Positions 3,694 to 63,908 of a stretch of DNA of 64,000 nucleotides are shown one piece after another; the stretch's first letter is position 1, and each line of letters begins with the position of its first letter. Under the pieces are notes generated by a model. That model was not told the origin of the DNA. It made no database searches and worked only from the letters and a program-made list of their open reading frames with translations. The stretch is from a phage. The position numbers and the translations under genes were made by a program. Where the stretch lies: the sequence record PZ347775.1. The stretch is one strand, 5' to 3'.

Positions 3694-3769
3694 TGGTCGA
3701 GGCAGTAGGGATCGAACCTACGACCTAGGACTTAGAAGGTCCTTGCTCTTCCTTCTGAGCTATGCCCCG
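3694..3769 (-). tRNA. tRNA-Arg (anticodon UCU)
   Basis: Manual cloverleaf: acceptor CGGGGCA/TGCCTCG, D-stem GCTC/GAGC, anticodon stem AGGAC/GTCCT, loop CTTCTAA, T-arm GTAGG-TTCGATC-CCTAC, CCA encoded. Confidence 0.85.
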
Positions 3770-3773
3770 TAAT

Positions 3774-3849
3774 TGGGGTGACCGATGGGAGTCGAACCCA
3801 TGACTACGAGAATCACAATCTCGAGTTCTACCAACTGAACTACGGCCAC
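3774..3849 (-). tRNA. tRNA-His (anticodon GUG); no G-1 encoded
   Basis: Acceptor GTGGCCG/CGGTCAC, anticodon stem CGAGA/TCTCG, loop TTGTGAT, T-arm ATGGG-TTCGACT-CCCAT, discriminator C, CCA encoded. Confidence 0.8.
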
Positions 3850-3963
3850 ATTAATACCTACTCCAACAATCAAGATGTCTTCACACGAAATTAAGAGAAG
3901 AGTGATCAGTTCAACCCCGATAATCGCGTCAAGTAGATATTAATGTGACAGTTGTCACAAATT
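3850..3963 (-). other. 114-nt spacer inside tRNA array with hairpin TGTGACA..TGTCACA; candidate small stable RNA or tRNA remnant
   Basis: Non-coding gap between tRNA-His and tRNA-Asn, much longer than other inter-tRNA spacers; contains a palindrome. Confidence 0.25.
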
Positions 3964-4038
3964 TGGCGGACGTGATAGGATTCGAACCTATAACCAATCG
4001 CTTAACAGGCGATCGCTCTGCCATTGAGCTACACATCC
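3964..4038 (-). tRNA. tRNA-Asn (anticodon GUU)
   Basis: Acceptor GGATGTG/CACGTCC, D-stem GCTC/GAGC, anticodon stem ATCGC/GCGAT, loop CTGTTAA, T-arm ATAGG-TTCGAAT-CCTAT, CCA encoded. Confidence 0.85.
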
Positions 4039-4042
4039 AAAT

Positions 4043-4129
4043 TGGTGGGGAGTGATGGAGTCGAACCACCCGAGTCGCAATGACAATGGATTTACAGTCC
4101 ACACCGCTACCTCTACGGGATAACTCCCC
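4043..4129 (-). tRNA. tRNA-Tyr (anticodon GUA), long variable arm
   Basis: Acceptor GGGGAGT/ACTCCCC, anticodon stem GTGGA/TCCAT, loop CTGTAAA, long variable arm, T-arm GGTGG-TTCGACT-CCATC, CCA encoded. Confidence 0.8.
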
Positions 4130-4142
4130 TTAATTCTTAATT

Positions 4143-4217
4143 TGGTGGCCCTGGGTGGAATTGAACCACCATCTGGCGATTATGAGTCGCTTGCTTGAAC
4201 CTTCCAGCTACAGGGCC
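4143..4217 (-). tRNA. tRNA with CAU anticodon (elongator Met or lysidine-type Ile)
   Basis: Acceptor GGCCCTG/CAGGGCC with G1-C72 (so not initiator-like), anticodon loop CTCATAA, T-loop TTCAATT, CCA encoded. Confidence 0.75.
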
Positions 4218-4218
4218 T

Positions 4219-4294
4219 TGGTGCTGATTGACGGAATCGAACCGCCGACCTTCTCATTACAAGTGAGTTGCTCTACCTACTGAGCTAAATCAGC
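4219..4294 (-). tRNA. tRNA-Thr (anticodon UGU)
   Basis: Acceptor GCTGATT/AATCAGC, D-stem GCTC/GAGC, anticodon stem ACTCA/TGAGA, loop CTTGTAA, T-arm GGCGG-TTCGATT-CCGTC. Confidence 0.85.
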
Positions 4295-4299
4295 AAAAC

Positions 4300-4389
4300 T
4301 GGCGGAGGCGATAGGATTTGAACCTATGAGTCGCCGGAGCGACTGCCGGTTTTCAAGACCGGTGCATTAAACCACTCTGCCACGCCTCC
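4300..4389 (-). tRNA. tRNA-Ser (anticodon UGA), long variable arm
   Basis: Acceptor GGAGGCG/CGCCTCC, anticodon stem CCGGT/ACCGG, loop CTTGAAA, long variable arm, discriminator G. Confidence 0.85.
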
Positions 4390-4391
4390 AG

Positions 4392-4465
4392 TCTCCATAC
4401 AAGGATTTGAACCTTGGACCTCCTGATCCCAAATCAGGCGCTCTACCAAACTGAGCTACACGGAG
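4392..4465 (-). tRNA. tRNA-Pro (anticodon UGG); CCA not encoded; 2 nt from tRNA-Ser
   Basis: Acceptor CTCCGTG/TATGGAG (two G-U pairs), anticodon stem CCTGA/TCAGG, loop TTTGGGA, T-arm CAAGG-TTCAAAT-CCTTG. Confidence 0.8.
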
Positions 4466-4475
4466 TAAATTAAAT

Positions 4476-4549
<74 letters not shown>

Positions 4550-4554
4550 AAATT

Positions 4555-4641
4555 TGGTGCGAGAAGTGGGACTCGAACCCACAAGGAAATCATTCCGCAG
4601 CATTTTAAGTGCTGTGCCTTTACCAATTTGACCATTCTCGC
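4555..4641 (-). tRNA. tRNA-Leu (anticodon UAA), long variable arm
   Basis: Acceptor GCGAGAA/TTCTCGC, anticodon stem AGCAC/GCTGC (one mismatch), loop TTAAAAT, T-arm GTGGG-TTCGAGT-CCCAC. Confidence 0.85.
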
Positions 4642-4642
4642 G

Positions 4643-4715
4643 CTGGGAATAAAGGACTCGAACCTTTGCATCCTGGAATCAAAATCCAGTGCCTTACCAA
4701 CTTGGCTAATTCCCA
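4643..4715 (-). tRNA. tRNA-Gln (anticodon UUG); CCA not encoded; 1 nt from tRNA-Leu
   Basis: Acceptor TGGGAAT/ATTCCCA, anticodon stem CTGGA/TCCAG, loop TTTTGAT, T-arm AAAGG-TTCGAGT-CCTTT, discriminator G. Confidence 0.85.
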
Positions 4716-62160: not shown

Positions 62161-62493
62161 TTATTTTACTACTTTCCAGTGCTGCATGTCAAGTTTACCA
62201 ACTTTTTTCATCTTCTCAATTAAGCGTTCGGCACGTTGGCGAGCTGTAACATAATACCATTCACCCAATTCATTTTGTTCAATTTTTCCAACGATTACTG
62301 TATTCAATTCATAAATCCAACCAGTAAAGAAATTATGAACTTGGATTGTAAAGGTGAAATCTGTTCCCATACCTTCTGTTGTTTCTACTTCAATAATATC
62401 ACCTTCAACTGCCATTAAGAACCACATAGTTTCATCATATTTACCATTGAAGCATTTAGTTTTAACTGTGGCGTTCAGATTAATCGTTTTCAT
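62161..62493 (-). CDS. hypothetical protein (110 aa)
   Basis: ORF with SD AAGGAGAATAAA and early promoter upstream. Confidence 0.55.
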   Translation of the reverse strand: MKTINLNATVKTKCFNGKYDETMWFLMAVEGDIIEVETTEGMGTDFTFTIQVHNFFTGWIYELNTVIVGKIEQNELGEWYYVTARQRAERLIEKMKKVGKLDMQHWKVVK

Positions 62494-62550: not shown

Positions 62551-62603
62551 AACTTTGTGCAATCTTTGGAAAATAAAAAAGGACTCCCGAAGGAGTCCTC
62601 AAC

Positions 62604-62780
62604 TTATGCTTTCTGCTTACCAAAACGAGAAGCATCATCTCGAAGAACCGCACGTGCTCGACGCATGATCTTCTCAACAGTTTGATTGATACGAGAGTTC
62701 GACCCACGCTTGTAGCCAGCGCGTTTAGAATCACCAACTTTCTTTTCAACTGCTTTCTTTGCTTTAACTTGTTTTGCCAT
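62604..62780 (-). CDS. small lysine/arginine-rich basic protein (58 aa from MAKQVKAKK)
   Basis: Track ORF 62604-62822 has no SD at the first ATG; the Met at 62780 has an AAGAGA purine tract upstream. Confidence 0.5.
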   Translation of the reverse strand: MAKQVKAKKAVEKKVGDSKRAGYKRGSNSRINQTVEKIMRRARAVLRDDASRFGKQKA

Positions 62781-62822
62781 TATAAATTCTCTTTTAAATG
62801 AAAATGCAGGACTTATTGGCAT

Positions 62823-63176
62823 TGCCTGCGCAAGCCCTCAAGGGGAACATAGGTTTTGGATATTTAACGACAGGATAACCATAAACCCGTCATCATACCT
62901 TATAGCTCTTATCTGTTGCACACCGTTAGCTTAAAGGTTCCGGGTCCGATTTCTCGAGGATAAGATATATACTGATGGATATATAGGCCTTGAGGCGTAC
63001 TCCCGATTGGCCATCACCTCGGGGTAGCATGCACTTGCCGCTATAAGAATAACATTCAAGAGGTACACCGTAAAACTGCCGGGGTCTTAAAACTATAATG
63101 ATTCGCAAATCATTAATCAGACAGTTCGACGGCTCCTCGTTTTAACTTCACACTAAGGCAGTGACTCTCCAATAAA
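62823..63176 (-). other. about 350-bp non-coding, GC-richer region with long-range inverted repeats; candidate structured RNA
   Basis: No convincing ORF on either strand; CCTCAAGG at about 62834 is complementary to CCTTGAGG at about 63033; several other GC-rich complementary segments. Confidence 0.3.
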
Positions 63177-63425
63177 TTACTTCAGTGTTACCACAAAGTG
63201 ACGAACTGCTTTTCGTGCGGCAGAAGCCAGAGGCTTAGCATATTTAAGTTCATCTTTTTCCTGAAGCTCAGCAGCTAATGCAGTTTGAGCAGGATTCAGA
63301 TGTTTGAAATAACGAAGGATTTCAAGAGCTTCGGCTTCAACATCAATAGATGCACCATAGTTTTCGTGACCATTATTCCATGCGTTTCGTTGCAGTTCAA
63401 GAGCGTGTTGTAATTGTTTAATCAT
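63177..63425 (-). CDS. rIII: rIII lysis-inhibition accessory protein (82 aa)
   Basis: 82-aa protein MIKQLQHALELQRNAW...; position upstream of gene 31 as in T4. Confidence 0.8.
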   Translation of the reverse strand: MIKQLQHALELQRNAWNNGHENYGASIDVEAEALEILRYFKHLNPAQTALAAELQEKDELKYAKPLASAARKAVRHFVVTLK

Positions 63426-63572
63426 TTAAAAATTCTCGTTAGAGATTAAAACTCGGTAGTCACGTTCTTCTGAATTTCATCTTCTTTCGACAGATCTCTC
63501 AGTTGTAGACTACCACGTAGAATTGTTCGGTTAACTTATTATTCCGACACCCAATTCATATTATTATTTATA

Positions 63573-63908
63573 TCACTTATAAAGACACGGAATAGCTTTA
63601 TAGTGACAGGTAACGAATTTTTGTTTAATTTCTTTTGGCTGCTTAAGACCCAGAGCTACAAAAGGATGCGGAACGTTTCGAATTTGACCAACTGGAAGAG
63701 AAGTCAAATCACCAACTTCGCAGAAACCTTCAGGAACATCAGGACCAACAGAGTGAATTACACATAGTTCAGGAACTTCACCTTGGACACGTTTACCGAT
63801 AATAAGTCCTGATTCTGTAACTTCTTCATCACCGGCTTGTGCAGGTTCAGAAACTAAAATAACATATTCACCGACAGCACGAATTGGTAGCTGTTGTACT
63901 TCAGACAT
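63573..63908 (-). CDS. 31: gp31 GroES-like co-chaperonin (111 aa)
   Basis: 111-aa protein; position and length as T4 gp31. Confidence 0.9.

Follow-up and report, generated by a model that had tools for sequence, protein, structure and literature searches.

What occupies the spacer between rIII and gene 30.9 in a T4-like phage, and does it act as RNA? The question arises from a 64-kb stretch of phage DNA (PZ347775.1; hereafter the window), which belongs to a T4-like phage of the genus Tequatrovirus and whose closest match over the region is Escherichia phage vB_EcoM_SA21RB (99.8–100% identity). A preliminary description of the window, made from its letters, held that about 350 nucleotides next to rIII (62823–63176) are non-coding, richer in guanine and cytosine (GC) than their surroundings and folded as a structured RNA through pairings between distant complementary words; a degenerate intron-like element and a frameshifted gene remnant were its other suggestions. 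Comparison with related phages gives a narrower answer: the conserved structured unit is an RNA element of 148–149 nt at 62899–63047 on the minus strand, not the whole 354 nt.

A conserved RNA fold in the rIII/30.9 spacer

Copies of the element were gathered from IMG/VR by conserved-word scans, from rIII-anchored loci, from a metagenome scan and from GenBank phages; 36 copies were collected, 27 of them distinct. RNAalifold run on plain MAFFT alignments returned one and the same fold whether 13 or 21 sequences were used, and compensatory double changes were present at 14 of 44 pairs in the smaller set and at 21 of 44 in the larger. Standard pairs fill 98.6% of cells in the unfitted MAFFT alignment and 99.2% in the model-fitted alignment. 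When the 3' partners were slid by 1–3 columns as a control, 25–43% of cells were paired (27–43% on the unfitted MAFFT alignment), and none of 500 column shuffles matched the observed value on any of five measures. Compensatory changes are found in every helix except the invariant 3-bp P2, with only one in P7. The most divergent copies are those of Serratia phage Muldoon and Escherichia phage EcS1, where whole helix segments are replaced and pairing is kept. The proposal of a structured RNA rather than a mere spacer therefore gains strong support from covariation across homologous loci, the check that had been suggested for it, but the helices are different ones, they span 148 nt rather than about 350 nt, and they belong to the minus strand.

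A scan for further consistent pairings identified a 6-bp helix between the hairpin loops L3 (UGAUGG, 63011–63016) and L4 (CCAUCA, 62973–62978). This kissing interaction is Watson-Crick in all 21 distinct sequences and occurs in four co-varying versions (UGAUGG/CCAUCA, CGAUGG/CCAUCG, CAAUGA/UCAUUG and CUAUGG/CCAUAG), with compensatory changes at three of its six pairs. Read as the minus strand, the alignment contains 60 G-U pairs and 10 non-pairs; read as the plus strand, it contains 69 non-pairs. The restriction of G-U pairs to the minus strand indicates that the RNA has the sense of rIII and counts against a DNA hairpin. Two other candidate tertiary contacts were rejected: an 8-bp pairing of UGCAUGCU with GGUGUGCA is broken in Erwinia phages, and a GAAA tetraloop-receptor contact fails because the P6 loop is also found as UAAA or UAAU.

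The conserved fold has seven helices, with a closing stem P1, a four-way junction and the hairpins P3, P4, P6 and P7 (all parts are on the minus strand). P1 is formed by a 5' arm at 63040–63047 and a 3' arm at 62899–62906, complementary at 8 of 8 positions, and opens into the four-way junction without linker nucleotides. Its sequence varies among genera while pairing is kept, one pair being distributed as AU:15, GC:10, GU:1 and UA:1, and four of its five modelled pairs show compensatory changes. Three arms leave the junction: P2-P3, hairpin P4, and P5 with its branches P6 and P7. The 5' arm of P2 (GGC, 63037–63039) is predicted to pair with GCC at 62986–62988; these pairs never vary, so covariation is neutral on this helix. 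Between P2 and P3, the internal-loop strand AAGUGCAU (63029–63036), near-invariant across genera and unpaired in the consensus fold, lies opposite CUCAAG (62989–62994). Hairpin P3 (62995–63028; arms 63017–63028 and 62995–63010), which carries L3, has compensatory changes in 7 of its 12–13 pairs, with CCCGA/UCGGG replaced by CUCUA/UAGAG in Muldoon and by CCGGAU/AUCCG in EcS1. In hairpin P4 (62966–62985; arms 62979–62985 and 62966–62972), which carries L4, three of seven pairs are compensatory (UAUAUA/UAUAUA, UAUACA/UGUAUA, UACACA/UGUGUA and UAUUCA/UGAAUA).

The P5 arm (62907–62965) is built on a long-range helix of UCUUAUC (62959–62965) with GAUAAGA (62907–62913), in which three of seven pairs are compensatory (UUCAUC/GAUGAG in Muldoon, UUCUAUC/GAUAGAA in EcS1), and within it lie P6, P7 and an invariant linker, GCAACA (62914–62919). 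Hairpin P6 (UCGA-GAAA-UCGG, 62946–62957) has compensatory changes at three of four pairs (CGA/UCG, UGA/UCA, CCA/UGG and AGA/UCU), and its loop reads GAAA, GUAA, UAAA or UAAU. Hairpin P7 (62920–62945; arms 62941–62945 and 62920–62925; 15-nt loop AACCUUUAAGCUAA...) has one compensatory pair, A-U to U-A in Erwinia phages, and its remaining pairs are invariant.

The ends of the element coincide with an insertion: relative to T4, the window carries 150 additional nucleotides, with the perfect 8-bp inverted repeat that forms P1 at their ends. A covariance model matches the element with 179.9 bits and finds a single copy in the 64-kb window. The Rfam scan raised in the preliminary description placed the RNA in no family, since none of the 4227 models of Rfam 15, which cover riboswitches, ribozymes, introns, small RNAs, tRNA and tmRNA among others, overlapped it at an expect value (E) of 10 or less in the window or in five homologous loci. 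We regard it as nearly certain that 62899–63047 on the minus strand encodes a real structured RNA, conserved in evolution and of a family absent from Rfam 15.

Distribution, placement and surrounding modules

In a blastn comparison with 50,697 phage genomes, 1012 records shared parts of the spacer and 180 carried most of it. In T4, T6 and many others the spacer matches in two pieces and the middle is absent; this middle piece, about 135 nt long, is 93–96% identical in Klebsiella and Enterobacter phages and 81% identical in an Erwinia phage. The element itself is present in 400–401 of the 50,697 records, in one place each. All of the element-bearing phages examined are T4-like, and their listed hosts are nearly all Enterobacterales: Klebsiella (158), Escherichia (130), Enterobacter (27), Shigella (26–27), and further Yersinia, Citrobacter, Salmonella, Serratia, Erwinia, Raoultella and Edwardsiella. 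One is labelled as an Aeromonas phage, yet its genus is Karamvirus. Thirteen metagenome matches all align to the covariance model. No copy was found in 5,426 E. coli genomes, and a strict two-block pattern had no match in one genome each of 185,579 prokaryotic species. A looser pattern gave four matches in the species genomes, about the chance number by our own estimate, and none of them scores with the model at the pattern site; a 17-bit match in a Desulfobulbia metagenome-assembled genome is unrelated and was treated as noise. At two more distant T4-like loci (L035 and L036, on contigs of 221–233 kb) the covariance model finds nothing.

The sequence of the element is under very strong constraint. 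In the alignment the core is almost invariant and its flanks are unalignable between genera. Core identity to the window is 92–96% in most genera and 75–86% in Erwinia, Serratia and Karamvirus phages and EcS1; at the same loci identity to the window is 67–77% for rIII, 68–78% for gp31 and 74–90% for 30.9. The 30.9 alleles are mosaic, so that some exchange between phages has taken place in the region and may add to the similarity of the core. In a comparison with loci L004, L006, L018 and L007/L008/L015, the window's 30.9 allele is 84–90% identical to Klebsiella and Enterobacter phage alleles and only 71–74% identical to those of phage contigs with a closer rIII (82–84%). As far as the alleles tell, this mosaicism at 62604–62780 points to inter-genus recombination in the region.

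In other genera too, the element lies between rIII and a 30.9 homologue, and its position is always this spacer, with variable spacing and variable order relative to several small hairpins. From the rIII stop to the core there are 11 nt in Moonvirus and Roskildevirus phages, 12–27 nt in L019, Karamvirus, L011 and EcS1, and 83–137 nt elsewhere; in the closest cases P1 begins about 5 nt past the rIII stop, and in several genera 5–12 nt past it. From the core to the 30.9 ATG there are 76–185 nt. Where the element abuts the rIII stop there is no room for a promoter, so that in those genera it must be co-transcribed with rIII. The spacer is pieced together from small conserved hairpins, and their arrangement around the element is not the same in all genera: the element precedes a hairpin with a GGUUAUC loop in the window, Cronus and EcS1 and follows it in Klebsiella and Serratia phages. 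In phage L022 the RIII protein is 100% identical and the 30.9 leader is identical, and a different 45-nt piece stands in the slot of the element; T4 and L022, which do not have the element, keep the same 30.9 leader. The variable order and the replacement in L022 argue that the element is a self-contained cassette, not part of a fixed leader.

The genes around the spacer are all on the minus strand. Directly upstream, and on the same strand as the RNA, is rIII (63177–63425), which encodes a lysis-inhibition accessory protein, preceded by gp31 (63573–63908). The next gene downstream is 30.9 (62604–62780; phrog_1427), which encodes a 58-aa basic protein and is followed by gene 30.8 (62161–62493). 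The T4 reference genome annotation has 30.9 in the 58-aa form, which sets the rIII/30.9 spacer at 62781–63176. The spacer is non-coding, as had been stated: its open reading frames (ORFs) are short, none exceeding 60 aa, and none has a PHROG match. Its greater GC content holds against the window as a whole (0.444 for 62823–63176 and 0.477 for the core element, compared with 0.363 for the window and 0.336 for gene 30.8), but not as a contrast with its immediate neighbors, as rIII (0.406) and 30.9 (0.435) are nearly as rich.

Several smaller features share the spacer, all on the minus strand. The hairpin with the conserved GGUUAUC-containing loop (GACGGG..CCUGUC, 62869–62891), which T4 shares and which stands on the downstream or the upstream side of the element depending on the genus, has a stem that appears to co-vary (GUGGA/UCCAC in L027, GUC-UAG/CUAGAC in L033). 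GGTTATC occurs 10 times in the window against an expected 6.4, which is no enrichment. Just upstream of the 30.9 ribosome-binding site lies a hairpin GCAGG..CCUGC followed by AUUUUCAUUU (62806–62829), with a co-varying stem (ACUGG/CCAGU in other phages) and a longer GGGAGC..GCUCCC counterpart at the same site in Klebsiella-type phages. This hairpin, a possible attenuator or operator of 30.9, overlaps a 72-aa extended ORF (62604–62822), so that 30.9 probably starts at the ATG at 62780, as in the T4 reference. About 60 nt past the rIII stop, an AU-rich perfect 8-bp hairpin, UAAUGAUU-UGCG-AAUCAUUA followed by UAGUUUUAAG (63086–63115), forms a weak terminator-like site between rIII and the element in the window phage; T4 has the site too, and the consensus scan did not call it. 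That scan called terminator-like sites at 62579–62600 and 62626–62642 only. A strong intrinsic terminator after 30.9 (GAGGACUCC-UUCG-GGAGUCCUU and a U run, 62565–62648) accounts for the one Rfam candidate in its neighborhood, Atu_C8, a small RNA of Rhizobiales, whose 31 bits against a gathering score of 50 were judged spurious.

T4 rIII is transcribed from early, middle and late promoters (PMC9409239), and in the near-identical phage SA21RB a late-promoter motif, TATAAATA, is annotated at the position corresponding to 63565–63572. A weak GTTTTAC..TATTCT match noticed by eye is not conserved in other genera and was set aside.

Existing records annotate the element in other ways. In SA21RB (OL960580, L001 2703–2741, equal to window 62982–63020) a 'rho-independent terminator' corresponds to hairpin P3, which has no U tract and is followed by CUCAAGG instead of U residues. 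In Marfa (MN044033, L003 2056–2263) two ORFs of 35–38 aa are annotated across the RNA, and other records place up to four 'hypothetical proteins' over it. These small-ORF and terminator annotations are probably wrong. One further record, Enterobacter phage SonariX (L004, PQ898399), is a 'partial genome' of 248,734 bp with the taxonomy 'Viruses' only; it carries a typical T4-like cd-31-rIII-RNA-30.9 block, and its size suggests a chimeric or concatenated assembly.

What the RNA may do

The account that we tentatively favor, with slightly less than even confidence, is that of a self-contained, partner-binding folded RNA that confers a host-dependent advantage. The element would be an independently folding domain of about 148 nt, made within the rIII transcript and probably trimmed from that message at its AU-rich flanks. 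It is an optional cassette, present in many T4-like Enterobacterales phages and missing from T4 and T6. A single specific partner, either a host or phage protein or a small ligand, would be bound by the conserved nucleotides of its junction and internal loop, and the phage would gain an accessory, host-dependent benefit; the element would not control a neighboring gene by way of an expression platform next to it. That a specific partner is recognized is implied by the near-invariance of unpaired nucleotides in so junction-rich a fold. A stand-alone RNA is preferred because the element is autonomous from the surrounding modules and dispensable in close relatives, and because the 30.9 leader is unchanged when it is absent.

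Several observations weigh against this account or against the strength of the comparison beneath it. Single-sequence folding of the element is no better than that of shuffled sequences (z = -0.77, compared with -1.16 for the whole spacer), and folds of either strand and of the whole spacer, with z between -0.77 and -1.16, are uninformative; one sequence thus reveals nothing beyond chance, and the case is built on comparison with relatives. The sequences compared are related to each other and include only 27 distinct ones, and neither P2 nor most of P7 shows any variation. Recent exchange between phages could account for some of the core's high identity. A consensus scan found no promoter or terminator belonging to the element itself. 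In every genome the element keeps strictly to the place between rIII and 30.9, which would suit a role in cis just as well, and a variable closing stem, conserved junction nucleotides and kissing loops are also typical of riboswitch aptamers and some ribozymes.

Foremost among the alternatives is a cis-acting regulator, riboswitch-like or protein-binding, within the rIII-30.9 transcript, which we consider unlikely but deserving of serious attention. Depending on how P1 and the junction fold, with a ligand or without one, read-through, processing or translation of 30.9 or the stability of rIII mRNA would change. The element always lies in sense orientation upstream of a gene, as purine and lysine riboswitches do, and the 30.9 leader has conserved hairpins and a U-rich tract just before the ribosome-binding site. 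The architecture is also aptamer-like. As in purine and lysine riboswitches, P1 changes in sequence and keeps its pairing, unpaired nucleotides of the junction and internal loops are conserved, and a Watson-Crick loop-loop helix ties two arms together; covariation and a tertiary contact are, however, traits common to other structured RNAs. A conserved expression platform adjoining P1, as a riboswitch would have, was not found: the 76–185 nt to 30.9 contain different modules in different genera, in changing order. Relatives that do not have the element, L022 and T4, keep the same downstream leader, no Rfam riboswitch class matches, and the gene context suggests no ligand.

A self-cleaving ribozyme that would cut the polycistronic transcript after rIII is improbable, and the idea is an architectural one. 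Natural hairpin, twister-sister and hammerhead ribozymes have junctions, internal loops and loop-loop contacts of this kind, and the element resembles natural hairpin and four-way twister-sister ribozymes in its perfect four-way junction, the conserved internal loops in its arms, its inter-arm contact and its size range. Near-invariant unpaired bases and, in several genera, a start right past the rIII stop would also suit self-cleavage. Unlike those ribozymes, the element matches no known family or covariance model at E ≤ 10 and contains no recognizable catalytic-core motif.

An element that acts at the level of DNA is very improbable, whether as a cruciform, as a site of recombination or replication, or as a selfish mobile cassette without RNA function. 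Its presence does vary among very close relatives, its placement in the spacer is shuffled, and the mosaic 30.9 alleles show recombination in the region. DNA hairpins would nevertheless lose pairing equally on both strands, whereas the 60 G-U pairs are confined to one, and loop-loop covariation is a trait of a folded single strand. Moreover, each genome has one copy, never elsewhere, with no terminal duplication or associated enzyme.

More improbable still is the fold first proposed, in which the whole spacer of about 350 nt is held together by CCTCAAGG/CCTTGAGG and CTCGAGG/CCTCGGGG, or its intron-like variant. The complementary words exist (CCTCAAGG at 62836–62843 with CCTTGAGG at 62988–62995; CTCGAGG at 62953–62959 with CCTCGGGG at 63017–63024), and the single-sequence minimum-energy fold of the spacer uses the first pair. 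Neither pairing is kept in relatives, however, and chance alone would give about one perfect 8-mer inverted repeat per ~400 nt (arithmetic: ~390^2/2 / 4^8). In the helix CTCGAGG/CCTCGGG, the 5' strand of P6 would pair with that of P3; of 188 cells, 46 are unpaired when the minus strand is read and 19 when the plus strand is read, and no compensation is seen. As for the other pairing, T4 keeps one partner without the other: CCTCAAGG falls within the P3/P2 region of the element, and CCTTGAGG is a small local hairpin, CCC-loop-GGG, with the loops UUGA, UCGA, UUCGA or UUA and no compensation, which is present in T4 in the absence of the element and stands upstream of the element in some genera. 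The folding energy is no better than that of shuffles, and conservation stops at the 135-nt core. No group I, group II or other Rfam model matches at E ≤ 10, and 148 nt in a non-coding spacer leave no exon to restore.

A decayed or very small protein-coding gene, the frameshifted remnant of the preliminary description included, can practically be discounted: a 60-aa ORF (62926–63108) overlaps the element and the annotators of Marfa called tiny ORFs there, but all six frames contain at least one stop within the element in 27 of 27 homologues, the homologues differ by 1- and 2-nt indels, substitutions fall in compensating pairs, and no PHROG match was found (a large protein-database search was not made).

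Relation to known phage RNAs

T4 encodes in its tRNA cluster the stable RNAs C and D (species 1 and 2), which are small, structured and non-coding and have no known function (Uzan and Miller, 2010; PMC3014915). The element is likewise a small structured non-coding RNA of a T-even-type phage. It differs from RNAs C and D in its locus, it is not found in T4, and the window, which bears a tRNA cluster, contains no second copy or paralogue of it. ARAGORN called no tRNA or transfer-messenger RNA at the element; its 11 calls all lie at 3694–4715 on the minus strand (Arg, His, Asn, Tyr, Met, Thr, Ser, Pro, Gly, Leu and Gln), a larger cluster than that of T4, which has eight. The element shares with tRNA a four-way junction whose arms interact through loops, but it is roughly double the length of a tRNA, lacks both an acceptor end and a T-loop motif, and matches no tRNA in ARAGORN or Rfam.

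The intergenic regions of T4-type phages are also home to PeSLs, reportedly described by Arbiol and colleagues in 2010 as mobile cassettes of about 50–60 bp with an early promoter and a stem-loop. PeSLs are non-coding modules shuffled between phages, and the rIII/30.9 spacer is such a patchwork. Unlike them, the element folds over 148 nt into several helices with a tertiary contact, has no promoter that we could find, and occupies one site per genome.

Full-text literature searches and Rfam 15 yielded no description of the element. The text of a catalogue published in 2023, with over 10,000 candidate viral RNAs (PMC10690425), names neither rIII nor T4-like phages, and the element may be included among its entries. 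We regard the element as a new family of a familiar general kind, the conserved structured phage RNAs. According to a 2010 review, no riboswitch or trans-acting regulatory RNA had been functionally characterized in T4, and T4 relatives were suggested as a possible source of such RNAs (PMC3014915); the element is a candidate of the kind that the review anticipated. The support for it is unusually clean, with seven helices, a tertiary contact and conservation far above that of the neighboring genes. E. coli phages are easily manipulated, and natural relatives that do not have the element, T4 included, can be used as controls. According to a recent study, the neighboring RIII protein binds ribosomal protein S1 and keeps the RNase RegB in check (PMC9409239), which makes a functional link of the element to RNA metabolism conceivable. 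It is possible, though we are doubtful, that the element represents a new class of complex-folded phage RNA, either catalytic or binding a host or phage factor with high affinity, that serves as an accessory factor in host takeover or counter-defense. If so, it would be the first functional RNA in the T-even group that is neither a tRNA nor an intron.

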